A DNA stretch of 64,000 bases, taken from NCBI GenBank assembly GCA_964465795.1, contig CAYXLD010000001.1:5127-69126 (forward strand), read 5' to 3'. Position numbers and translations under genes: made by a program. A model generated the notes under the pieces. It did not search any database and was not told where the DNA came from. It saw only the letters and a program-made list of their open reading frames with translations. This DNA is from Candidatus Woesearchaeota archaeon. Its GTDB lineage: Archaea; Nanobdellota; Nanobdellia; Pacearchaeales; GW2011-AR1. Shown in pieces: positions 5,150 to 52,967 of this stretch (within the stretch, counting starts at the first letter, position 1; each line of letters opens with the position of its first letter).

Positions 5150-5394
5150 TCTAACCTTTTTTGTCTCTTTCTCCATCCTTTTCTAATTCTTTTCTGATAT
5201 TCTAATCCTGTCTCCTTCATATCTTTCCAAATACCTGCGGCAGCCATAACAGGATCTTCCTTTGGTTTGGTAAGTAGAACTTTATCTCCGTCTACAATAA
5301 ACATTACTTCCTCTCCCTCTTTCACCCTTATTACTTTTCTTATATCCTTAGGCAATGTAATTTGATAATTCCTAGTTATTTTTGAAATTCCCAT
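5143..5394 (-). CDS. vapB: AbrB/MazE-type antitoxin (VapB-like)
   Basis: MGISKITRNYQITLPKDIRKVIRVKEGEEVMFIVDGDKVLLTK is a swapped-hairpin SpoVT/AbrB signature. Lies immediately upstream of the PIN gene. Confidence 0.6.
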   Translation of the reverse strand: MGISKITRNYQITLPKDIRKVIRVKEGEEVMFIVDGDKVLLTKPKEDPVMAAAGIWKDMKETGLEYQKRIRKGWRKRQKRLEW

Positions 5395-5508
5395 TTTTAA
5401 TTATATTATCTAGTTAATATTTCTAGTAATTTCTACTATTTAAATCTTGTTATTTTTATTTTAAAAAAGCGTGCTAATCTTTTTAATCCTTCCCAACCTA
5501 TATAGTAT

Positions 5509-7842
5509 ATGTCTGAATTAAACATAAAAGAAATGGAATCACAAATTCTAAAGTTCTGGGAAAAAGAAAAAATCTACAAATTTAATCTTAACAGCAAAAA
5601 ACAAATTTTCTCAATAGACATTCCTCCGCCAACAATTTCAGGAAATATGCATATTGGGCACTCATTTTCATATTCACAGCAGGATTTTATTGCAAGATTC
5701 AAAAGAATGTCAGGCTTTAATGTCTTTTACCCATTTGGCACAGATGACAACGGTCTTCCAACAGAAAAATTAGTTGAAAAAATAAATAATGTGAAATCAA
5801 AATCAATGTCAAGACAGGATTTTATTGCCTTGTGTTTAAAAACATTAAAAGTGATAACTCCAGACTTCATTCAAGACTGGAAAAATCTTGGAATTTCATG
5901 CGATTACGATTTATATTACTCAACGATAGATGAAAAATCACAAAAAATTTCGCAAAGCTCTTTCATAGAGCTATACAAAAAAGGCTATGTCTATAAGGAA
6001 AAATTTCCAACCATCTATTGTCCAGAATGCCAGACTCCTGTTGCACAGGCAGAGTTGGAAGATAAGCAAAAGAGTACCTTTTTTGCTACATTGAAATTCA
6101 AGTCGAATAATAAAGATTTGCCAATAGCAACAACAAGACCAGAATTATTAGGGGCCTGCGTTTCTGTTTTCATAAATCCACAAGACAAAAGATACAAAAA
6201 TCTCATTGGAAAAAAAGCTAAAGTCCCGCTATTTAATCATGAAGTTCCAATTATTGCAGATAAATCAGCTGATACAGAAAAAGGAACAGGAGTTCTAATG
6301 GTATGCTCTTATGGGGACAAGTATGATGTTGAAGCCATAAAGCGCCATAAATTAACTCCAAGAATAATCCTAAATAAAGAAGGAAAATTAACAATTTCAC
6401 AATATCAAAATCTCTCAATAAAAGAAGCGAGGAAAAGAATCCTGGAAGATCTAAAGAAAGATGATCTGATTATTGAACAGAAAACGATTGAACATAATGT
6501 AAATATGCATGACAAATGCGGAACAGAAATAGAATTCCTTCAGACAGAACAATGGTTTATTAAAATCTTAGATAAAAAACAAAAATTAATTGAGCAAGGT
6601 AAAAAAATATCTTGGTTTCCCCAGCATATGTTCAAGCGCTATGAAAACTGGATTCATGGTTTAGAGTGGGATTGGAGCATTTCAAGAGAAAGGCATTTCG
6701 GAATTCCTATTCCTGTTTGGATATGTGAAAAATGCCATGAAGTTATCTTGCCAAAGGAATCTGAACTACCAATTGACCCTTTAAAAATTAAAAAGGTCTG
6801 CCCAGAATGCAGATCCCAGGCATTGCCAGAAACTAGCGTTTTAGACACATGGGCAACCTCGTCTTTAACGCCTCAAATTGCCTCATCTCTAGTTAACAAT
6901 AAAATAAAAATTCCATATAATCTCAGGCCTCAAGGCCATGATATAATAAGAACCTGGGCATTTTATACAATAGTAAAGTCATTATTGCACAAAAACAAGA
7001 TTCCTTGGAAGGAAATAGCCATTTCAGGTTTTGTTACTCTTGAAGGCGAAAAAATGTCTAAATCAAAGGGAAATGTAATTTCTCCACAGAATATAATGGA
7101 TAATTATAGTTCAGATGCATTAAGATATTGGGCGTCAACATCTAAACTTGGTGAAGATTTAGGTTATCAAGAAAAAGACATTATTACAGGAAAAAAATTC
7201 ATAACTAAAATCATCAATGCAACAAAATTTGCATTTATGAATCTTAAATATCAAAAAGAACAACCAAAATTAATAGAAACAGATCGTTTATTTCTAGCAC
7301 AATTAAATAATATTATCAATTCCATAACACGGGCTTTTGAAGAATACAATTATTCAAAGTCAAAATTAGAAACAGACTCCTTCTTTTGGAAAAAATTCGC
7401 AGATAACTATTTAGAGATTATAAAAAATCGTGTGTACAACGGAACAGAAGTAGAAAAATCTTCCGCATTCTACACTATCTACAACTCGCTATTAACAATT
7501 CTAAAACTTTATGCCCCAATAACTCCTTTCATAACTGAACATCTCTATCAAGAATACTTTAAAAAATATGAAAAAACATCTTCAATCCATATCTCGCAAT
7601 GGCCAGCCCCCATAAAGATAAGACAAAATAAAAATGATAGTCAAATCTGGCAAACTCTAATAGAAACAATCTCAAAAGTCCGTCAAGCAAAAACAGAAGC
7701 GAAAAAATCAGTTAAAGTGGAAATTATTCTCACAATACCGAAGGAAGGTATATGCACTTTAGAAAATGTCCTTCAAGACCTTAAAGCAGTTACAAATTCA
7801 AAAGAATTAAAAGAGGGCAATTTTAATGTTGAATTTATTTAA
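5509..7842 (+). CDS. valS: Class I aminoacyl-tRNA synthetase, most likely valine--tRNA ligase
   Basis: HIGH motif (PPPTISGNMHIGH) and KMSKS motif (KMSKSKGNVISP). A zinc-finger-containing insertion (WICEKCHEV ... CPECRS). The PPPT..G..H.GH pattern is typical of ValRS, but 777 aa is on the short side. Confidence 0.6.
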   Translation: MSELNIKEMESQILKFWEKEKIYKFNLNSKKQIFSIDIPPPTISGNMHIGHSFSYSQQDFIARFKRMSGFNVFYPFGTDDNGLPTEKLVEKINNVKSKSMSRQDFIALCLKTLKVITPDFIQDWKNLGISCDYDLYYSTIDEKSQKISQSSFIELYKKGYVYKEKFPTIYCPECQTPVAQAELEDKQKSTFFATLKFKSNNKDLPIATTRPELLGACVSVFINPQDKRYKNLIGKKAKVPLFNHEVPIIADKSADTEKGTGVLMVCSYGDKYDVEAIKRHKLTPRIILNKEGKLTISQYQNLSIKEARKRILEDLKKDDLIIEQKTIEHNVNMHDKCGTEIEFLQTEQWFIKILDKKQKLIEQGKKISWFPQHMFKRYENWIHGLEWDWSISRERHFGIPIPVWICEKCHEVILPKESELPIDPLKIKKVCPECRSQALPETSVLDTWATSSLTPQIASSLVNNKIKIPYNLRPQGHDIIRTWAFYTIVKSLLHKNKIPWKEIAISGFVTLEGEKMSKSKGNVISPQNIMDNYSSDALRYWASTSKLGEDLGYQEKDIITGKKFITKIINATKFAFMNLKYQKEQPKLIETDRLFLAQLNNIINSITRAFEEYNYSKSKLETDSFFWKKFADNYLEIIKNRVYNGTEVEKSSAFYTIYNSLLTILKLYAPITPFITEHLYQEYFKKYEKTSSIHISQWPAPIKIRQNKNDSQIWQTLIETISKVRQAKTEAKKSVKVEIILTIPKEGICTLENVLQDLKAVTNSKELKEGNFNVEFI

Positions 7843-7909
7843 ATAATTCTAAAGTAACTCTGCAAACTAATATCCTAACCTTTATTAACCATCCTTCATC
7901 ATTTCAAAT

Positions 7910-9013
7910 ATGGCTGAAATTACCCAAAAACAAAAACAGGAGCTTGAAGAATTAATAGATATAGTGGGCAGTATCCGCGGAAGGCATACAGAGTTAGTAA
8001 CTGTATATGTGCCTGCAGGATTCAACCTTTCAATAATAACAAAACAGCTAGAAGCTGAAAAATCAACTGCGGCAAATATAAAGTCTAAAGCAACAAGAAC
8101 CGCTGTTGAAGATTCCTTGGAAAGAATAATTAGAGAGCTAAAAAGTTATAAACAAAATACAAAAAATGGACTTGCAATTTTTTGCGGAAATATCTCGGAG
8201 AAAGAGGGGGTTCAAGATATAAAATTATGGGTCTACGAGCCTCCAAGACAATTAAATGTAAGGCTCTACAGATGCGACCAGATTTTTATTATAGATACAT
8301 TAAAAGAGCTATTAGAAGCTAGCGAAACTTATGGTCTTGTTGTAATGGACAGGCAGGAAGCAACAATAGGCTTTCTAGAAGGAAAGCAAATTAAAGTATT
8401 AAGGCATTTAACATCAGGTGTCCCTGGAAAAGTGCGTGCCGGGGGGCAATCTTCACAGCGTTTTGCTAGAATTACAGAAGGGCTAGCAAAAGAATTTTTC
8501 AGAAGAGTCGCAGATGCTATGAAAGATATCTTCTTCAATATGCCAAAACTAAAGGGCATCTTAATAGGCGGCCCTATGCCGACAAAAGAAGATTTTCTAA
8601 AAGAAGGCGATCTTGTTACAGCATTAAAAAATAAAGTAATAGCTATAAAAGATTTAGGTTATACAGACGAACACGGTTTAGAATTATTAGTAGAACAGTC
8701 TCAGCAAGATATCGCAGAACAGGAATTAATTAAAGAAAAAAATATCCTGACAAAATTCTTTGAAACATTGGGGAAGCATAGAGAAAAGGCAGCTTATGGT
8801 ATTGAAAAGGTTAAGCTAGCTATTGAAAGGGGCGCAGTAGAAATTCTCCTTATATCAAAAAAATTTCCAAAGAAATCAGCAGAAGAGCTGGAAAAAGCAG
8901 CCAATAATATTGGTTCTGAAGTAATTATAATATCTACAGAAAATCAAGACGGCGAACAATTTTACAATCTTACAAAGGGTGTTGGCGCCATCCTTCGTTT
9001 TCCTATAGAGTAA
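7910..9013 (+). CDS. prf1: Peptide chain release factor aRF1
   Basis: Universal GGQ motif in RAGGQSSQRFARI. Length and overall layout match archaeal aRF1/eRF1. Confidence 0.85.
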   Translation: MAEITQKQKQELEELIDIVGSIRGRHTELVTVYVPAGFNLSIITKQLEAEKSTAANIKSKATRTAVEDSLERIIRELKSYKQNTKNGLAIFCGNISEKEGVQDIKLWVYEPPRQLNVRLYRCDQIFIIDTLKELLEASETYGLVVMDRQEATIGFLEGKQIKVLRHLTSGVPGKVRAGGQSSQRFARITEGLAKEFFRRVADAMKDIFFNMPKLKGILIGGPMPTKEDFLKEGDLVTALKNKVIAIKDLGYTDEHGLELLVEQSQQDIAEQELIKEKNILTKFFETLGKHREKAAYGIEKVKLAIERGAVEILLISKKFPKKSAEELEKAANNIGSEVIIISTENQDGEQFYNLTKGVGAILRFPIE

Positions 9014-9067
9014 AAAATAAATATTCCATTGTAAAAATCTTTAAAACTAAAAAATACTAGGTAATTT

Positions 9068-9640
9068 ATGCCTAATTTAAAAAGAGGGTTAGAATCTCTT
9101 TTAATTGCATCAATATTATACTTAAACAGCTGCAATGTAGTAGCTAGAATTACAGAAAAAAATGAGGATTTAAAAACAAGAAACCTAGGATTTGATCCAT
9201 GTCACATTAACTCATGCGGCCCAAAGGCCCTCCACGATTTGTTTAAAGAATATAGTATAAAAAAAGAGCCAAAGGATATAAGCAAAGAAATTTTAAAAAA
9301 TAACTCAATAGGAAGCATTGCTAGGAATATCTTGGCAATTATTGATAATGAAGCTATGATGATAACTTGGCCTTGGGAGATTAAAGAAATATTGGAAAAA
9401 AATATTAATAGTAATATGTATGTAATATCAGTCAAATCAGGAAATAATCAATCGTTAGAATATAACTTAAAAAACTCCTCAATATACAATAAAGGAATTA
9501 TTCTAGTAAAAGACAAATCTTCCATTTTTTCATACCACTATATCTCTCTAAATTCTGGTGTAAATCTAATAAACTACTACGGAAAAAATACTGAAATTTG
9601 TAAGATATTCTATGTTGAATCGACAAAATCTGATAAATAA
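9068..9640 (+). CDS. Hypothetical secreted or lipoprotein-like protein; possible papain-like cysteine peptidase
   Basis: N-terminal hydrophobic segment ending LYLNSC (lipobox-like). Cys in NSCGPKALHDL resembles the Cys-Gly of C39/papain-like peptidases. Weak. Confidence 0.3.
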   Translation: MPNLKRGLESLLIASILYLNSCNVVARITEKNEDLKTRNLGFDPCHINSCGPKALHDLFKEYSIKKEPKDISKEILKNNSIGSIARNILAIIDNEAMMITWPWEIKEILEKNINSNMYVISVKSGNNQSLEYNLKNSSIYNKGIILVKDKSSIFSYHYISLNSGVNLINYYGKNTEICKIFYVESTKSDK

Positions 9641-44677: not shown

Positions 44678-45721
44678 CTAGCCCCCGCCAAATCTTCTCT
44701 TGCGTTGCCCGTATTCCTTAATAGCTTTATGTAATTCCCAGATTCCAAATTCAGGAAAATAAGCTTGGGAAAAATAAAGCTCAGCATAAACAGATTGAAA
44801 AGGCATAAACCCGCTAATTCTTTGCTCTCCAGATGTTCTAATAATTAAATCAGGATCAGGAATGTCTTTTGTATCTAAATACCTTGAAAATTCTTCCTCT
44901 TCAATCTTTCTAATTCCATCTTTTAACATTTTACTCACTGCCCTTAATATTTCATCTCTACCACCGTAATCTAAGCATAATAAAACCTCGAAATTATTGT
45001 ATTTTTCTGTCTCTTTCTCCAGCTCTTGCAAAGATTTAATTAAATTTCTTGGCAGTCTATCTTTTCTGCCTATATGTCTAAACCTTATCTCATTTTCCTT
45101 CGCAAATTTCATAAACCTTTTTACTCCTCCCAGCAACATATCAAAAATAGCTCTTTTCTCTTCATCGCTCCTTTTCCAGTTTTCAGTAGAGAATCCCCAG
45201 ATTGAGATATATTTAACTCCGATATTTTTTGCTTCCTTTAATAATGATTCAATATTGCTATAGCTCCCTGATTTATAATGCCCGAAATGAGATTCTAGCC
45301 CTCTAAATTTAGCCCATCTTCTATTTCCATCAGGAATTATTGCAACATGTTGAGGAATGCTCGTGAATTTTCCATTTTCTGCCGAATATCCAAAAATTCC
45401 TTTCAAAAGCCTAAATATACTCTTCAACTTATCAATAAAAAAATTTCCCTCTCTAACAATTTTGAAATCATTTGATGCTCTGTCAATATTGCTCCAAGAT
45501 ACATCTATATCCTCTACTTTTGACAATCCCGGGCTGGTTTTTATCCAATCTATCATCCTATTAATTTCCTTTCTATCTCCCTGTGCAACAATTAAAACTC
45601 CTCCATCAGGCAGATTAATAACGCTGCCTTTCAATCCTAAGTCCCCTGCATACTTCTTTACTTGCTTTCTGAAATGTATTCCCTGTAATCTTCCCTTAGC
45701 TTCAATTCTTGCTTCCTTCAT
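44678..45721 (-). CDS. uppS: Fusion protein: N-terminal acylphosphatase domain plus C-terminal cis-prenyltransferase (undecaprenyl-diphosphate synthase-like)
   Basis: Residues 1-90 carry acylphosphatase signatures (EAKGRLQGIHFR...GSVINLPDGGVLIVAQG). The rest carries UppS motifs (HVAIIPDGNRRWA, GFSTENWKR, IRTSGEQRISGF). Confidence 0.75.
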   Translation of the reverse strand: MKEARIEAKGRLQGIHFRKQVKKYAGDLGLKGSVINLPDGGVLIVAQGDRKEINRMIDWIKTSPGLSKVEDIDVSWSNIDRASNDFKIVREGNFFIDKLKSIFRLLKGIFGYSAENGKFTSIPQHVAIIPDGNRRWAKFRGLESHFGHYKSGSYSNIESLLKEAKNIGVKYISIWGFSTENWKRSDEEKRAIFDMLLGGVKRFMKFAKENEIRFRHIGRKDRLPRNLIKSLQELEKETEKYNNFEVLLCLDYGGRDEILRAVSKMLKDGIRKIEEEEFSRYLDTKDIPDPDLIIRTSGEQRISGFMPFQSVYAELYFSQAYFPEFGIWELHKAIKEYGQRKRRFGGG

Positions 45722-46772
45722 TATTTGCCTCCAGAATTAATTCATCTTTAAATCTCTCTAAATCATTGCTCTGTATCCGTGCTCCAACAGCATCTTCATG
45801 GCCTCCGCCACTAGCATTCTCAAATTTCTTTAAAACTTTTTCCAAAATATTTTTAACATTTTTCCCCCTTAAAGAAACATTAGACACCTCTCCTTTCTTA
45901 TAAGCAACAGCAACATATTTTTTAGGATATAAATATGAAAGCTCATTCGCAATATCTGCACTAATGCTTAATTCTCCACTATACTGAAAAAATAAAAGTT
46001 TGCCCTTTGCATTCTTTATTGCTATTTCAAGTAAAGAATCATATTTTTTCCTTATTTCCCTATATTTCTTCCTAAAAGAATAATTTTCCTTAACTTCCAA
46101 AAATATTTCATCAGGTCCTTTGCAGGAAATCAAGAAATTTTGCAAATGAACAATATTACTAGTGCTGTCTTTCAGCCCAAAATTTAAGGCCAGAGCAATT
46201 TTCCCTATTTCTGTTCTGTAATATGCATCGAAGGGTTCAACTACTTTTCCCCAGAATTCACTATACCCTGCTCCAAATTCTTCCGCATAATCCGGCATAT
46301 AATGATCAGCAATACATCCAATAATTCCAAGCCATAAGTCTTCTTTCCTTCCGCAAAGTTTCATGCACCAATAACTAACTGGCTCCTCACTCCTGTTCTT
46401 TTCTGAATTCTTTGTAGGATTATAAACAAAAAAATTCTTCAGACCATTAGCAAAATCATCTCCACTAACGTCGTGATGATCAATCCATACAATAGGCAGT
46501 CCCAATCTATCTATTTCCTCAATAAATTCTCTGGAAACAACAGGCTTATCCAAAACAAAAACATAATCTGCTTTCAACTCACTTGCTTTTCTCGCATATT
46601 GCTTATTTAAATCAGGAAAACTTCTTACAGCCACACCTCTCCCTCGTCCCAAATACCTTCTTAAAATCAAAAAACTGCATAATCCATCGCAATCATTGTC
46701 ATAATAAAAAATAGGATTTTGCGCGCTCTCAAGATGCTCTTTCAATTCATTCATCTGTTTTTCAGTCAGCAT
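45702..46772 (-). CDS. DHH-DHHA1 phosphoesterase (NrnA/RecJ-like)
   Basis: DHH motif (IVWIDHHDV) and DHHA1 GGGHEDAVGA motif. Confidence 0.7.
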   Translation of the reverse strand: MLTEKQMNELKEHLESAQNPIFYYDNDCDGLCSFLILRRYLGRGRGVAVRSFPDLNKQYARKASELKADYVFVLDKPVVSREFIEEIDRLGLPIVWIDHHDVSGDDFANGLKNFFVYNPTKNSEKNRSEEPVSYWCMKLCGRKEDLWLGIIGCIADHYMPDYAEEFGAGYSEFWGKVVEPFDAYYRTEIGKIALALNFGLKDSTSNIVHLQNFLISCKGPDEIFLEVKENYSFRKKYREIRKKYDSLLEIAIKNAKGKLLFFQYSGELSISADIANELSYLYPKKYVAVAYKKGEVSNVSLRGKNVKNILEKVLKKFENASGGGHEDAVGARIQSNDLERFKDELILEANNEGSKN

Positions 46773-46814
46773 ATAAAATCAAAAAAACACGCTATTTAAA
46801 CTTGCTGAAAGATT

Positions 46815-48913
46815 CTAATTTAAGCAAGAAAGTTCGTCTTCTGTAGAGTCAGCGCCTTCTTCAGGGTAAGGTACAGGAGGAGAATTTCCCCCTTTGAAAA
46901 GATGATTGAGTAAATAAACAGAGTCAGTTAAACTAACGCCTCCTGAATCATCAACATCTGCCGCGTCTAAACACATTGGCTCTTCTCCACCTTGGAATAG
47001 ATAGCTCAATATTCCAACGGCATCAGATATATCAATTTTATTATCTCTATTTAAATCTCCTCTAATAAATTTCTTAATTTCAGTACAAACATCAGTTTCA
47101 ATATAAATTTCTCCATAAACCTGTTCATCAGGATAATTAATAAAGGCGGTTTTCTGGTCAGAATCAATGGAGTCTATTGTAACAATAGTGCCATATATAT
47201 CTGCCTCTTTTGTCTTTGTACTTTCACTAGCCAGTGCAATAGCGCCCCATTCTTTATCATTACTCCAAGTTCTAATAACTTCATTAATTCCTATTCCATC
47301 ATCTCCAGAATTTCCAGGCTCTAAAGTAACAATCAGGCCGTTAAGTATATCTTTATTATCTTTTTCTTCAAAAATTACTAATGAAGGATAGATAATCTCT
47401 GCTGTATTTTTAGAATTAGTCAAATAAACCTCTATTTTATCTTTGGTGCCGCTGCCTTTTATCTTATAATTAAATTCTGCAATTTTAACAGAAACAAAAC
47501 TATTTTTATCAAGAATATTTATTTTATTAGATACCACGCCACTAATAACATCCCATGAACCTCTGCCATTGTCTTTAAATGTAATAAAGGTATAGCCATC
47601 TCCATCAGGAAATCTAAGATCAGCCAATTTATTTCCGCCGCCATTCCAATTATTAAGATCAATAATCATTGGTTTATACAATGCAACTTGAGCCCCTTTG
47701 TTGCTTTTTATAGTAGGATATATTATAGCGCTTCCTAACCCTATGCTATCAGGATAATTTATTCTAATACTATTGCCATCATCAGATGAAATGCCCTCAT
47801 AACTTACTATATAGTCTTTTCCACCAACGCTGACAGTGCTCAATCCTTCAGCAGTAATTCTTGCATCAATAGTATCTCCTGAGAAAACATTTATAAATTC
47901 TATATTATCATTTGCAGTGCCCATTTGATTCGTTATTGCAGAAACTTTCAAAAGTCTGCCATTATCATCATTACCTATAATAACTAATTCATTTCTCAAA
48001 ATCTTTTCATTTTCAAAAACATGAATTTTTTTTCCATCCAGAGTTTCTAAATCAATAGCATTTCCAGGTTTAACCATAGCTCACTGGAACGCTTTTTCAT
48101 ATCCTTCGTAATCTTTCATTCTTAAAATCATTAGGCTATCTCCATTATTTCTAATAACAAAATCTTCTCTTAAAGAAGTATCATCTTCACCTATGTTTAA
48201 TCTTTTAAAATCAATTCGGAAAGTGCCGAATACAGGATCAATAAAAACATTCCTTGCCGGCGGGAATGTTAAAGTAAGAGCATCTTCATCCGAATCAGGC
48301 GCAATTATACTAAGTACTATTTTTGTGGTTGCAATCGGACCTCCTTCGATCATCACAGATGTACCCTCAATAAATCCTTCATCGATACCTTTCAAAACTC
48401 CTCCGCCATTATTATAAAAAAATAGAGGGATATTATCTTCACCAAGTAAAACAATTCTTTCATTATTAGTTAATGGTGAAATGCTGAATTTTTTTCCAAA
48501 TATTTTGATATCCTTTCCTGTAGATTTTGTAAAGTCAACAGCCCTGCTAAAGGTAATAGAAACCTTATAAAAGTAGTTATTTTCTACAGTGCTCAATCTC
48601 AATCCAAAACTAGGGCCATCAGAACTTGTAGGTTGTTTAGCAAAAATAATTTTAGGATAAGAACCAATTTCTATACCTTGAACATATTCTGCTGCAACAT
48701 TCCCAAAAAAACTGCCTTTTTTTAAAAGAGCAGGCAATTCATTACTATTAATGATGGATTTGACGCTATTCAACGGTTCATTTAAATAAATTTTATTGGC
48801 TGCGGCAAATAAAGGCGTTACCTCTCCAGTACATACGGCCTGTGCAAAAACTCCACTAATAAAAAATATTCCTATTAATCCAGAGAAAAAATAATATAAG
48901 CCCTCTTTTCATA
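46815..48913 (-). pseudogene. Dockerin-domain secreted protein. The body is the two track ORFs 48081..48773 and 46815..48077, separated by an in-frame TGA at 48081-48083. The N-terminal signal peptide lies in other frames.
   Basis: C-terminal tandem dockerin repeats DLNRDNKIDISDAVGILSYL and DVDDSGGVSLTDSVYLLNHL. The ATG at 48913 gives MKRGL..., then a signal-peptide-like ...LIGIFFISGVFAQ in a second frame, then the main frame. Frame switches coincide with an A6 run (48887-48892) and a CCC run (48839-48841). Confidence 0.5.
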
Positions 48914-48956
48914 ATCTAAAAAAGGAAATTTCATATATATATCTTTCTAATTTTAG

Positions 48957-49950
48957 ATACAGTAAACTTATAGTCAATTATGCTTAGCTACATAAGCTAT
49001 AAGTTCTAGTAGTTTATTCCTTCCAAGATCAAGTTTTATCTCCGCCATTTCTGCTGGTGTTTTATCTTTCAATTCTTGATGTGGATTTACAAAATTGTTC
49101 ATGATTCTTTGCAAATTCATAAATGATTTTGCATATTCAAAACTCTTGAATTCTCCTCTCCTTGCATTCATTCTGTCTTTCAATTTTCCATTATATCTTT
49201 CAATTGGATTGTTATTATGTTTCAATCCATATTTTTTACATGCAATTGGAACACCAAATTATAGTTTAGCAACTCTGTAAAAAAGATTATTAAATGCATT
49301 TCTGTAATTTTCAAAACCATCTGAAACAAAAATTATTCTTTTATCTATTTTCATAAATTTCTTTATGTAATATCTTGCAAGCATTTGATTATAGCAAGTT
49401 TCTTTTATCTGGGAAAGAAACTTAATGCAGTTTTCTTCATCTATTTTATCGACGAATAAATGAGCAGTTACAAACTTTGTTTTGCTGTCAATACAATTTA
49501 GGTCAAAACAATCTTCTCCATCAACCTTGACATATTTTTCATCGTAATGCTGTCTTCCTTTTAGTTTTGGCTCTAGTAGATTTATCTGATTTTAAAAAAA
49601 AGGAATATTTTTTTATCCATCGACTAATTGTTCTTTTAGTCACTTTTATTCCATCATGCTGCCACAAATGGTCTTTCACATCAAACAAGGACAACCCTTC
49701 GTTGTGCAAGGATATTGCACGTGCAATATCCTTTTTATTATATCTCATTTTTTTGAATCCATCTTCTTCCACAAACCATGTTCCACAATCATTGCATAAA
49801 TATTTTTGCTTATCTCCAGTTTTGTTCTTTCTAAAACCCTCTTTCATCACGTTTTTGTTTTTACACTTAGAACATCTCAATTCCATGATACTCCTCCCAA
49901 AAAAGGAGGTTTATCAACTATATAAGCCTGACGATAAGTATACTATATCC
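48957..49950 (-). mobile_element. IS6-family insertion sequence (~994 bp) with imperfect 22-bp terminal inverted repeats, an 8-bp target-site duplication TAATTTTA, and a decayed transposase
   Basis: IR at 48957-48978 (gatacagtaaacttatagtcaa) matches the reverse complement of 49928-49949 (gatatagtatacttatcgtcag) at 18/22 positions. Direct repeats taatttta lie at 48949-48956 and 49951-49958. The transposase shows the N-terminal Zn-ribbon/HTH ORF (49539..49886), the DDE region HYDEKYVKVDGEDCFDLNCIDSKTKF in a +1 frame, and the C-terminal NNPIERYNGKLKDR ORF (48974..49225). Confidence 0.7.
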
Positions 49951-49955
49951 TAATT

Positions 49956-52304
49956 TTAATAAATCACACCGCCATAATCATCTTCATAAGGCAACTCAAT
50001 CTTCCCTAGTTCTCGCAAATCATCCAAATAATTAGCCTTAATTTTCGCCATCGATAGAGTATATAAAATATCACCAATGTATAAACTTCTCTGAACTTGA
50101 TTCTTATAGTCATAATAAGGATTATGATTTATTCCCCCTGGTAATGAATCAATCATCTCATTACTCCAAATATTTTCATAATTTTCATGATAAGATTTCG
50201 TGGCTGTTTCAGGGGCGTACAATTCTGTATTATTGCTCTCCCATTTATCCTCCCAAATCTTAGTCCATGTCTCTCCACTATATCCCGCTCTCTTTGCCCC
50301 TATCAGCTCTTCAGAAGCAGGTCCATACTTTTTTATATCATCAAAATGAGTTATCTGTCCTTTAACTTTAATATAATCTTCTTTTATATCGAAAACATAT
50401 GCTCCCTGCCAGACAGTTTCTCCATAAGCCAATTCAGGTCTCTCATGGTTTTGGGAATTTATTTTAGCCAAAGAAATAGGCAATACAAGCAAATTCCTTT
50501 TTTTATCAAATAAAAATGCTTTATGGTCATATAATGCATTACTATCTGTTCCTCTGTCTCCAATAATGATCTTGGCGCTTTCCTTAGGATTTGCCACATC
50601 CCTAACATCAAATATAGCAATCTTCAGCCCTTGATTAATAACAAAATCTCTGGTAGAATCAGAAACCTCTAAAGTATCTTTTCCTATCCCTATAATATGA
50701 TTCTCGTCATAAGCGTGCAAGTAATCAGAATACCCTGGAATCTTCAAATATCCTAAAACTTTAGGTTCTTGAACATCAGACAAATCAATCACATAAAAAG
50801 GATCAATATTCTTAAAAGTCACTAAATAAGCTCTGTCTCCAATAAATCTTGCAGAATAAATTCTCTCTCCAGGAGCCAAATCTTCAACTTTGCCAATAAC
50901 TTCCAAATTATCATTTAATATATAAACATTATTTTTGCTATTTTCGCTCCAAAATTCCCCAGAAGTCGTGGCTATTCTAAAATATCTATTATTCTCATCC
51001 ATAAAAAATTGATTTAGAACAGTTCCTTTAACTTCTCCTTCGGTCAAGTATTCAATTTCCTCTTCATCAACTCTAATCTTATGAATAACAGTCTTCTCTC
51101 TTTGTTCCCTCAATTCTCTTATAAAATAATTCATGCCTTCATATAATCTCTCATCAAAATTAGATTTAGCCTCCCCACCCAAAGAGCCGGAATAATCAAG
51201 AATAACTTTATTTATTTTGCTGTTCTTTTCATGAAAAGAATCTTTGGAATTTAATACATTTTCTATCTTTATTTTTTCATCAGCTGGAACAATAGGCAAA
51301 ACAACCTGCTCAATCATATCTTCAAAATAATCTCTTTCATTCAAAAATTTAGTGTAAGTCAGATAAATATTTTCACTAGATACATATAAGTTATTGCTCG
51401 CTCCAGTCAAATAAACTTTGCTATTGACCTTTCCATTTTTTATATTTATCGAATTTATAGTATTAAATGTATATCCATAATCCCAATAATCAAAATAATA
51501 AAGATCGTTTATAGCCAATCTTTCTTCAGCACCATTTATTTTTAGCATAGGCATTATAGGATTATCATTATTAACATATTTAGAGCCAATAATATAAACA
51601 TAATCTCCAATCATCCTGGAGTTTATATATTGGCCTTCGATGCTAATTTCTTTATCTAATTTAGGCTTAGTTCTATCACTTATATCATAAATATAAGCAT
51701 AAATGATAGATTCTCCGCCATAATAAGGAGGGAATATTGCTATATCAACAGCAGCTTCTTGTAATTTTGTTTCCTGATCTGAATTTATTGTTTCATATCC
51801 TTGGGCAAAAACAATAAGTCTATCTTCATTAACAAATATTCCCAATAAACTTTTATCCACAAATTCAACTTTACTAATAATTCTCATATCAGAAGCAGGG
51901 AGAGCATTAACAATAACAATCTTATTACCTGCAATATCATAAATGTAATTTCCGTCATTTTTAACTAAATCTGCTTCATCAACTCCTTCCACTTGAACAT
52001 TAGTTTGAGAATAGTCGCTTGCTTTTGCTCCAGACCCTGATTCAGCAGTAATACTTGCCCCATCTCTTTGAAGAAAACTTCTATCTATTGAAGGCAGTGC
52101 TCTTTGTGCAATCTCAAAATTCCCTAAATCCTGGCTCTCTTTCAAAAATTCCTTCAATTCAAAATAAGAATTAAAACTCCTAATTTTATTATTATAAACA
52201 ATTTCATCGCTAGTTTTTGAGTCAAAAACCGATATTGCTATCATAACTAAAACAAAAATTAATAAAACTGCAACAATGCCTATGTTCTTTGTTTCATCTT
52301 TCAT
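49956..52304 (-). CDS. Secreted/anchored beta-propeller-domain protein
   Basis: N-terminal TM or signal segment, then repeated beta-strand-rich motifs (QVEGVDEADLVKNDGNYIY, YVYIIGS, GDRAYLVTF...). Resembles the 'beta propeller domain' secreted-protein family. Its stop codon lies inside the IS target-site duplication. Confidence 0.45.
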   Translation of the reverse strand: MKDETKNIGIVAVLLIFVLVMIAISVFDSKTSDEIVYNNKIRSFNSYFELKEFLKESQDLGNFEIAQRALPSIDRSFLQRDGASITAESGSGAKASDYSQTNVQVEGVDEADLVKNDGNYIYDIAGNKIVIVNALPASDMRIISKVEFVDKSLLGIFVNEDRLIVFAQGYETINSDQETKLQEAAVDIAIFPPYYGGESIIYAYIYDISDRTKPKLDKEISIEGQYINSRMIGDYVYIIGSKYVNNDNPIMPMLKINGAEERLAINDLYYFDYWDYGYTFNTINSINIKNGKVNSKVYLTGASNNLYVSSENIYLTYTKFLNERDYFEDMIEQVVLPIVPADEKIKIENVLNSKDSFHEKNSKINKVILDYSGSLGGEAKSNFDERLYEGMNYFIRELREQREKTVIHKIRVDEEEIEYLTEGEVKGTVLNQFFMDENNRYFRIATTSGEFWSENSKNNVYILNDNLEVIGKVEDLAPGERIYSARFIGDRAYLVTFKNIDPFYVIDLSDVQEPKVLGYLKIPGYSDYLHAYDENHIIGIGKDTLEVSDSTRDFVINQGLKIAIFDVRDVANPKESAKIIIGDRGTDSNALYDHKAFLFDKKRNLLVLPISLAKINSQNHERPELAYGETVWQGAYVFDIKEDYIKVKGQITHFDDIKKYGPASEELIGAKRAGYSGETWTKIWEDKWESNNTELYAPETATKSYHENYENIWSNEMIDSLPGGINHNPYYDYKNQVQRSLYIGDILYTLSMAKIKANYLDDLRELGKIELPYEDDYGGVIY

Positions 52305-52382
52305 TTTAATTAAAAAATCTCCTTATATTTAAATAATTCTTTAAGTTCAATCCTCTTTGAACAATATCTAGTTTTCCAATAA

Positions 52383-52967
52383 TCATCTTTTCCTCCAGAA
52401 GTTTAATATTAAAAAAACCAGCAGTGCGAATAATGCTCCGGCAAAAAACAAAAGCCAAACGTTTTGAGCTATAACCATTATGCTATCATTAACTCCTGCA
52501 TCAGCCGCCAAAAAAGAGCTGGCTTCAGCAGATTTTTCCATAGCTAAACCTCTTACCATCTGCTCTCCGCCAACTACATCTGCTGCTTTCTCTAATTTAC
52601 TATCAGTCCATATCTTTATCCCAAAAGCAATCGCTCCAGATATCAAAACACTAGGTATAATTCCCCTCATCATCCTTCTGGGAGAAATAACTATTTTCTT
52701 ATTTGAAATTCTATATTTATAAATTCTTTTCCCTTTAATACTCCATAAAAATCTCTTTGTTTTATCTATCAGCCCAGATTCCTCAAGTTTTCTTATATTA
52801 TACTCAATAGTATTAAGAGGAAGTTTTAAATTATTTGAAATCTCGCTCTCGCTTAATTCGCTATTGCTTAACAATCCCAATATTTTCTTGGCAGTTTTAT
52901 TCGAAATTACATCAGCAATCTTCCCTGTTCTTGGGTCATCTAAATCAATCATTATCGAATTTGACAT
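52383..52967 (-). CDS. Membrane-anchored winged-helix (ArsR-like) transcriptional regulator
   Basis: N-terminal HTH (LSESEISNNLKLPLNTIEYNIRKLEESGLIDK), then two TM helices (IIPSVLISGAIAFGI...; LFFAGALFALLVFLILNFW). Immediately upstream of the beta-propeller gene. Confidence 0.5.
   Translation of the reverse strand: MSNSIMIDLDDPRTGKIADVISNKTAKKILGLLSNSELSESEISNNLKLPLNTIEYNIRKLEESGLIDKTKRFLWSIKGKRIYKYRISNKKIVISPRRMMRGIIPSVLISGAIAFGIKIWTDSKLEKAADVVGGEQMVRGLAMEKSAEASSFLAADAGVNDSIMVIAQNVWLLFFAGALFALLVFLILNFWRKR

Follow-up and report, generated by a model that had tools for sequence, protein, structure and literature searches.

The window, the whole 64,000-nucleotide stretch analysed here, comes from contig CAYXLD010000001.1 of a Candidatus Woesearchaeota archaeon. 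In it, a gene for a beta-propeller protein is separated from the remains of an S-layer-like gene by an insertion sequence (IS). The element is 994 bp long (48956..49949), carries its transposase gene on the minus strand, and is bounded by inverted repeats and a 9-bp target-site duplication. A sequence-only reading of this DNA had described it as an IS6 element with an 8-bp duplication and a transposase broken by at least two frameshifts. We find that the insertion sequence is real, IS6-related, and a non-autonomous copy. For the genome in the window this is an ordinary matter, one dead IS copy in an intergenic gap. The wider subject is the clade to which the copy belongs, in which, judging from the alignment of its members, the change of frame in the middle of the transposase is a family trait and not decay, and is most likely a programmed +1 ribosomal frameshift at AAA-U, often AAA-UAG. 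The comparison set comprises 147 related loci, 67 from species-representative genomes and 80 from metagenomes. Those from genomes are labeled almost without exception as Woesearchaeota, Pacearchaeota, Nanoarchaeota or similar metagenome-assembled genomes (MAGs) of the DPANN archaea.

Element ends and target-site duplication

The inverted repeat at the transposase 3' end, GATACAGTAAACTTATAGTCAA, occupies 48956..48977 on the plus strand and takes in the stop codon of the second transposase frame (TGA, 48976-48974). The repeat at the 5' end occupies 49928..49949 and is written for the minus strand as GATATAGTATACTTATCGTCAG, the reverse complement of the plus strand. The two are identical at 18 of 22 positions, just as the sequence-only reading had reported for its 22-bp imperfect repeats. 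A search with a degenerate 21-mer of the repeat, allowing up to 3 mismatches, finds only 2 sites in 64 kb, both of them the element ends, where 0.02 would be expected from shuffles; the same search finds no further copies or solo ends in the window. Relatives measure 982-1021 bp, compared with the 994 bp of the window copy. The tip motif GATAYNGT is conserved among them and takes the form GATAYAGTA in the window copy, and the end consensus of the clade is GATACTGTCAACTTA, a repeat of about 22 nt that has GA tips and contains a CTGT core.

A perfect 9-bp direct repeat, CTAATTTTA (TAAAATTAG on the gene strand), directly abuts both tips, with the left copy at 48947..48955 and the right copy at 49950..49958. 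The right copy holds the TAA stop codon of the beta-propeller gene (49958-49956), which makes up the first three bases of TAAAATTAG, so the earlier placement of that stop inside the duplicated target is borne out. The direct repeat itself had been recognized as perfect and present at both tips, but it is 9 bp long and not 8, and the 8-mer TAATTTTA stands at 48948-48955 and 49951-49958, which shifts the left coordinate by one from the 48949-48956 first given. Coincidence had been raised as a possible explanation of the match, and for the 8-mer the caution is justified: TAATTTTA occurs 8 times on the plus strand of the window and its complement 12 times, where about 10 would be expected for each strand, and because it is common in sequence of 32% G+C the 8-mer alone proves nothing. 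For the 9-mer, a match at the two fixed tip positions has P ~3e-5, and about two dozen relatives show this geometry too. Of the 62 copies in which both tips and flanks are present, 24, the window copy included, have a perfect 9-bp duplication and 3 more have one with a single mismatch; the relatives L013 and L055 are two further 9-bp cases. Wherever a duplication is present in these 62 copies, its length is 9 bp and never 8. The 8-bp length that the sequence-only reading had taken as the signature of IS6, and that is a defining feature of that family, is thus absent both here and from every relative with a duplication.

Two pairs of copies have flanks worth recording. In L095 and L096 the 9-bp flanks are swapped (ccagtttag-IS-tgcaaggac in one and tgcaaggac-IS-ccagtttag in the other, X-IS-Y and Y-IS-X). 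This is the pattern expected of a cointegrate or of recombination between copies, and it gives no more than a hint of such an event, with an assembly chimera as the alternative. L090 and L092 have a common left flank and different right flanks.

A transposase in two frames

Transposase ORF A (open reading frame A; 49539..49886, minus strand) is intact and encodes 115 amino acids that include a CxxC...CxxC zinc finger and a helix-turn-helix (HTH), with the 0-frame TGA at 49541-49539. ORF B (48974..49591, minus strand) lies in the +1 frame, has 205 codons followed by the TGA inside the inverted repeat, and encodes the DDE catalytic domain, Pfam PF13610. Its catalytic residues are D17 (49543-49541), D91 (49321-49319) and E131 (49201-49199) on the minus strand, and K138 is present as well.

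A conceptual fusion of ORF A and ORF B scores 39.3 bits against Pfam DDE_Tnp_IS240 (PF13610), for which the gathering score is 27, and nearly all close homologues carry this domain. The best NCBIfam model for the fusion is IS6 (NF033587), with 76.4 bits and E=2.3e-21, below the cut-off of 125 bits. NCBIfam IS1 (NF033558) aligns to residues 5-161 only, with 30.4 bits against a cut-off of 100 (E=3.5e-7), ORF A has a weak match to the NCBIfam IS1/IS1595 zinc-binding domain (E=1.5e-4), and no Pfam IS1 domain is found in the fusion at E<=0.01. By tblastn against the plasmids of PLSDB, all matches to the catalytic region are annotated as IS6 family (Clostridium zinc-finger type, ISCpe7, and IS26) at about 25% identity, and one match, to the N-terminal part, is annotated as IS1 family. 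The call of an insertion sequence with IS6-type transposase homology is upheld by the PF13610 score above gathering and by the IS6 annotation of the plasmid DDE matches. A single-ORF IS6 transposase of 340 amino acids from Clostridium botulinum can be aligned across zinc finger, HTH and DDE, and in that alignment the frame change corresponds to the linker between HTH and DDE. The end sequence of the Clostridium IS6 element, ATCTGTTAAGTTA, resembles the clade consensus. The closest ORF B in databases is 84% identical to that of the window, and no sequence relative of the transposase was found among solved structures.

According to a review of the IS6 family (Varani et al. 2021, PMC7986276), members have a single ORF, 8-bp duplications, lengths of 700-890 bp, and repeats of 15-20 bp with GG tips and cTGTt/caaa motifs. 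In the same review, zinc fingers are found only in the Clostridial clades h and i, with clade h at 1230-1460 bp; the archaeal members belong to Halobacteria, Thermococcales, Methanococcales and Sulfolobales; and a frameshift is noted only for ISRle39a/b and ISEnfa1, its relevance unclear (PMC7986276). The clade described here is like the IS6 (IS26) family in its homologous PF13610 domain with the D, D, E, K/R pattern, in an HTH immediately ahead of that domain, in short terminal repeats with a CTGT core, in a transposase gene that fills the element and whose promoter lies at the left end, and in having many copies without a duplication together with one swapped-flank pair, as cointegrate-type events would give. 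With clade h it shares the N-terminal CxxC zinc finger. It is unlike IS6 in having only about 25% identity, with a score under the NCBIfam IS6 cut-off; in its two ORFs with a conserved +1 frame change, 9-bp duplication and GA tips; in its length of about 1.0 kb, where most members have 0.7-0.89 kb and those of clade h 1.23-1.46 kb; and in its DPANN hosts, which are not among the archaeal clades of the review. By these comparisons, the clade is a variant of the IS6 kind, distantly related and outside canonical IS6 membership, and IS6-type transposases are then not tied to the 8-bp, single-ORF pattern that defines the family. The clade is apparently undescribed: a literature search, which did not extend to ISfinder so that an earlier description is possible, found nothing on this clade, on 9-bp IS6 duplications, or on DPANN IS6 elements.

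As for the state of the window copy, the two or more frameshifts first proposed for its transposase reduce to a single +1 frame change (49601-49589) together with an in-frame TAA (49261-49259). A second frameshift was considered and rejected, as ORF B aligns in one frame over 205 codons. The premature TAA (49259..49261, minus strand) is codon 111 of ORF B, between the second Asp and the Glu, where relatives read Gln (...AKLQFGVP...), which corresponds to a change from CAA to TAA. By this alignment, the nonsense codon is what disables the copy, and because the TAA precedes the catalytic Glu the copy is non-autonomous. The earlier description of it as immobile is right in that a full transposase cannot be made, but the cause is the nonsense codon and not the frame change, a feature shared by 109 of 115 relatives. 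Both ends, the promoter, the Shine-Dalgarno (SD) hairpin, ORF A and the shift motif are kept, and the copy might at most be mobilized by transposase from another copy. Wherever Logan assemblies of three runs overlap the window, they agree with it at 100% identity. The nonsense codon is covered by two of them, which come from different runs, and the motif by the third, so neither feature is an assembly artefact. The Logan contigs of ERR4904391 and ERR3478686 both end at 49473 and an adjoining contig begins at 49445, inside the IS, where the graph branches; branching at 49445-49473 suggests other diverged IS copies or strain variants in the samples.

Conservation of the frame change and its probable decoding

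Among 115 copies with both ORFs, ORF B stands at +1 relative to ORF A in 109, and the two frames differ in 113. The junction falls at the same residue in relatives despite amino-acid identities to the window copy of 49-80%. In the window copy the frameshift motif is TTTTTTTTAAAAT (49589..49601, minus strand), read as TTT TTT TTA AAA TCA in the 0 frame and as AAT CAG in the +1 frame. Across 99 unique sequences an 11-nt block at the junction, TTTTTTAAAAT, shows no variation even at third codon positions, while third positions to either side are free to vary. In the rest of these ORFs, TTA accounts for 35% of Leu codons and TTT for 78% of Phe codons, and TTA is essentially invariant at the site. 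The length of the T-run ranges from 6 to 8 among relatives while the frame relation holds, across many studies and assemblers. The 0-frame codon after UUU UUA AAA is UCC in 51 copies, UAG in 24, UCA in 19, AAA in 7, and UAA in 5. TCC occupies this A-site position in 44% of copies, compared with 4% of Ser codons elsewhere in the ORFs and 6% in the genes of the window, and a stop occupies it in another 25%; 29 of the 115 copies have exactly AAA-TAG or AAA-TAA.

Both halves of the gene are under purifying selection. Of the 106 copies with the motif, 101 have ORF A intact, 100 have ORF B intact, and 95 have both, and the ratio of nonsynonymous to synonymous rates (dN/dS) is about 0.21 for ORF A and about 0.16 for ORF B, with synonymous differences near saturation. 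No ATG, GTG or TTG precedes the first catalytic Asp in the ORF B frame of 81 out of 105 copies, and where the first start codon does occur its position is scattered; because of this lack of a start, ORF B could not be made alone as a complete enzyme.

Nearly all of the 120 best homologues are about 200 amino acids long and represent ORF B only, with just two or three fused ones of about 305. Annotation pipelines call such elements "frameshifted pseudogenes" or report just a "DDE integrase" of 200 amino acids, where the split would be the functional state. A search of 1.8 billion representatives with ORF A finds stand-alone proteins of 92-131 amino acids as the closest matches, and the more distant ones are often single chains of 280-400. 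One naturally fused relative, P0009, has AGC ACC TTG CTG GTT AAG at the junction, with no T-run and no A-run. Because distant relatives are often single-chain and the fused P0009 is without the motif, the split state looks derived and tied to the motif.

Some copies depart from the standard site. L038 and L143 have one T fewer, which leaves ORF A and ORF B in the same frame with a TAA between them. L013 and L137 have a T8-GAG form whose +1 frame is without the TAA, and there slippage on the U-run itself would work. L040, on a contig binned as "uncultured Gammaproteobacteria", is without the T-run motif, has another frame relation and 51% identity, and may be mis-binned or from a more distant lineage. 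Two other origins of the frame change were rejected: a homopolymer error of sequencing or assembly, as the same sequence is found in the Logan assemblies of three runs and the frame relation is kept in relatives, and an alternative genetic code, as TAA, TAG and TGA each terminate long ORFs in the window.

What a scheme of expression adds to the observed anatomy, frame-change conservation, motif invariance, purifying selection, 9-bp duplication and IS6-type homology is the ribosomal nature of the shift, the identity of the slipping tRNA, and the role of ORF A. One mRNA would start from the TATA-box promoter just inside the left inverted repeat. Normal decoding would give ORF A, a zinc-finger/HTH protein of about 100-115 amino acids, which alone would probably be an end-binding regulator by analogy with IS1 InsA and IS3. 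At UUU-UUA-AAA-U a fraction of the ribosomes would shift +1, and the likeliest route is slippage of peptidyl-tRNA-Lys from AAA onto AAU when a stop (UAG/UAA) or the rare Ser codon UCC occupies the A site. In this way ORF A would be joined to the DDE domain of ORF B, giving a transposase of about 303 amino acids. The location of the shift is narrowly bounded. The +1 frame reads UU UUU UAA AAU at the site, and because the target frame is open only past that UAA, the shift must occur at or after UUA AAA; in the 29 copies with a stop directly after AAA, AAA is for that reason the sole slip window. Polymerase slippage or a -2 ribosomal shift on the U-run is excluded as a route for the standard motif, as the UAA that follows sits in the target frame, in agreement with the DNA variants L038 and L143. 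The invariant U-run might, as speculation, weaken pairing in the E and P sites or, as an archaeal oligo-T terminator, keep down the amount of full-length mRNA.

Taken as a whole, the explanation that this is a DPANN IS clade, related to IS6, making 9-bp duplications and using a +1 ribosomal shift, with a window copy disabled by a nonsense codon, is one that we hold to be probable, and with some assurance. Several observations count against it. The A-site codon of the window copy is UCA, a common one (30% of Ser codons) and a poor fit to a pause at a hungry codon. Re-pairing from AAA to AAU leaves a wobble mismatch. RNAalifold finds no conserved RNA structure from -40 to +80 of the site, so no stimulator is seen. 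The fused protein and the mRNA sequence are predicted here from the genes, and the insertion is deduced from the duplication alone, as no empty site was found. The duplication is absent from 35 of the 62 copies with both flanks; these copies could come from replicative or recombinational events or from chimeric metagenome assemblies.

The frames could also be joined by RNA polymerase, which would stutter on the T7-8/A4 tract to make an mRNA one nucleotide shorter that encodes the fused transposase directly. The motif is indeed a long homopolymer tract, slippage on runs of 7-9 A is on record for IS elements (IS1447, PMC6211511), and the T8-GAG variant of L013 and L137, lacking the TAA, could be fused by loss of one U. 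In the standard motif, however, any change in the number of U that joins the frames of ORF A and ORF B puts UAA in frame, and this is what L038 and L143 read (...F-TAA). By reasoning from the sequence, only the A4 run could then serve, but its shortness counts against it, as does the mismatch that would be required at the U/A boundary, and we consider transcriptional slippage unlikely. Another possibility is that there is no recoding and that ORF A and ORF B are separate proteins acting in trans, ORF B being translated by re-initiation or coupling. That only ORF B is called as a gene in almost all close relatives would suit this, as would the stop of ORF A right at the motif in about 25% of copies, which fits termination-reinitiation. 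It is hard to reconcile with the 81 of 105 copies that have no ORF B start before the first catalytic Asp and the scattered positions of the first start, with the presence of zinc finger-HTH and DDE on one chain in all fused homologues and in the IS6 and IS1 relatives, and with a conservation of the motif at the nucleotide level well beyond coding needs; we regard separate proteins as distinctly improbable.

If instead the frame change were an old inactivating mutation, which would extend to the whole family what the sequence-only reading held for this copy, all copies would be fossils, and the window copy with its nonsense codon is itself defective. But dead copies would neither spread nor stay open, whereas 95 of 106 copies have the two ORFs intact, dN/dS is about 0.2 with near-saturated synonymous sites, perfect 9-bp duplications flank about two dozen independent insertions in many different genomes, and the element ends and promoter are conserved, so a dead family is very improbable. 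Still less credence can be given to a canonical IS6 element with an 8-bp duplication whose ninth base matches by chance. The duplicated repeat does contain TAATTTTA and the IS6 homology is real, but all 24 of the 24 perfect cases match only at n=9, taking n=8 gives 2-8 mismatches in every copy, the tips have GA in place of GG, the transposase is split over two ORFs, and the score against NCBIfam IS6 stays under the cut-off.

The proposed +1 ribosomal frameshift can be set beside systems already known. IS1, of 768 bp, has a zinc finger and HTH in InsA, a frameshift that produces InsAB', and a duplication usually of 9 bp and sometimes of 8 bp. The DPANN clade is like IS1 in its zinc-finger/HTH ORF A, in the proposed frameshift to a DDE ORF B, in the 9-bp duplication, and in an element of about 1 kb. 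It is unlike IS1 in that IS1 shifts -1 at A AAA AAC, whereas the clade would shift +1 at UUA AAA U, and in that its catalytic domain matches IS6/IS240 and not IS1. Members of the IS3 family make duplications of 3-4 bp. In IS3 and IS1447, an ORF A regulator and an ORF AB transposase come from overlapping frames, by -1 ribosomal frameshifting in IS3 and by polymerase slippage on A9 in IS1447 (PMC6211511); both have transposases of another family than the one here. In Euplotes, the classical +1 site is AAA-TAR, with nothing else conserved there (PMC4759687). Like that site and like the bacterial prfB site (CUU-UGA), the DPANN motif has a P-site codon able to re-pair one base on, followed by a stop or slow codon, and as in Euplotes only a short linear motif is conserved. 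It differs from both in that the A site mostly holds a Ser codon (UCC or UCA), in the invariant U-run that comes before the site, and in its archaeal host.

For archaea, a 2021 review of recoding lists one experimentally shown -1 frameshift, and a +1 event is merely suggested, for a haloarchaeal virus (PMC8211752). Against that background, more than 100 diverged copies with one 11-nt +1 motif and natural variants are a ready-made comparative and reporter system, which is of note as DPANN archaea are hard to culture and archaeal frameshifting rests on the single shown -1 case. The broadest statement we would offer is that this is an undescribed DPANN IS group standing between IS6 (catalytic domain, ends) and IS1 (two ORFs, 9-bp duplication), dependent on a +1 shift at UUU-UUA-AAA-U(AG/AA/CC), and that the site is the first widespread and comparatively well-supported +1 signal in cellular archaea, a "shifty stop" like that of Euplotes. 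We offer it tentatively, as something that may well be right but on which we would not quite wager.

Leader, neighboring genes and the search for an empty site

An archaeal TATA-box-like sequence, TTATATAG (49918..49925, minus strand), lies 25-32 nt from the tip and is the putative transposase promoter; nearly all relatives have a TTTATATA-like box at about 23-31 nt from the tip, after the repeat. Relatives also have a GGAGGT SD sequence 6-8 nt ahead of the start codon. In the window copy, the SD sequence GGAGG (49897-49893) can pair with an upstream anti-SD at 49909-49905 to form a hairpin CCTCC-N7-GGAGG (49893..49909, minus strand) with a minimum free energy of -9.5 kcal/mol. A CCTCC upstream that would pair with the SD is found in many copies, and 56 of the 65 unique leaders have a paired SD, compared with about 60% of shuffles. 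Because the expected transcription start lies downstream of CCTCC, the hairpin could, as in IS10, silence transcripts that read through from the gene upstream. The beta-propeller gene of the window lies directly upstream of the IS, in the same orientation.

The beta-propeller gene encodes 782 amino acids on the minus strand. Downstream of its stop, the next ATG (48912-48910) follows 34 nt after the duplication and 43 nt after the element end, close to the 36 nt or so first estimated, with a TATA-like GATATATATAT between. No gene is cut by the element, which landed in a 43-nt intergenic gap. The sequence-only reading had it inserted between the beta-propeller stop and a dockerin gene; the intergenic position at the stop codon is confirmed, whereas the "dockerin gene" is, by comparison with homologues, the 3' part of an S-layer-like pseudogene. 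That gene (46815-48912, minus strand) encodes an S-layer-like protein with a C-terminal dockerin and is broken twice, at 48901-48903 and at 48081-48083. The first lesion is an extra G at 48901-48903, right after MKRG, which cuts off the signal peptide. The second is a change of TGG to TGA at 48083-48081, between ORFs of 230 and 420 amino acids, where the closest homologue, P0242, has Trp; the homologues are single proteins of 650-890 amino acids. The IS, placed directly upstream of the TATA-like box of this gene, may have silenced it first.

The site before insertion would have carried the target once, as ...CATATATATATCTTTCTAATTTTAATAAATCACACC..., and the sequence-only reading had pointed to related strains and metagenomic reads as the places to look for such a form. 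None was found: exact-protein look-ups of the flanking genes gave only contigs identical to the window, and a degenerate search of JGI metagenomes with the last 10 codons and stop of the beta-propeller gene gave nothing. In the closest related genome, L072 (Woesearchaeota MAG CAYHYK01, 5352-9520), which has a beta-propeller protein 70% identical to that of the window, an HTH regulator gene is followed by the beta-propeller gene and then by that for the DHH phosphoesterase. In the window (45702-52967) the last two are separated by the IS and the broken S-layer-like gene. Both are missing from the L072 locus, which cannot serve as an empty site because the S-layer-like gene is also absent there. 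L072 has a dockerin protein of its own, of 695 amino acids, which is not homologous to that of the window. Over the whole window, the plus strand has 12305 C versus 8148 G, a GC skew of about -0.2, and 22810 A versus 20737 T.

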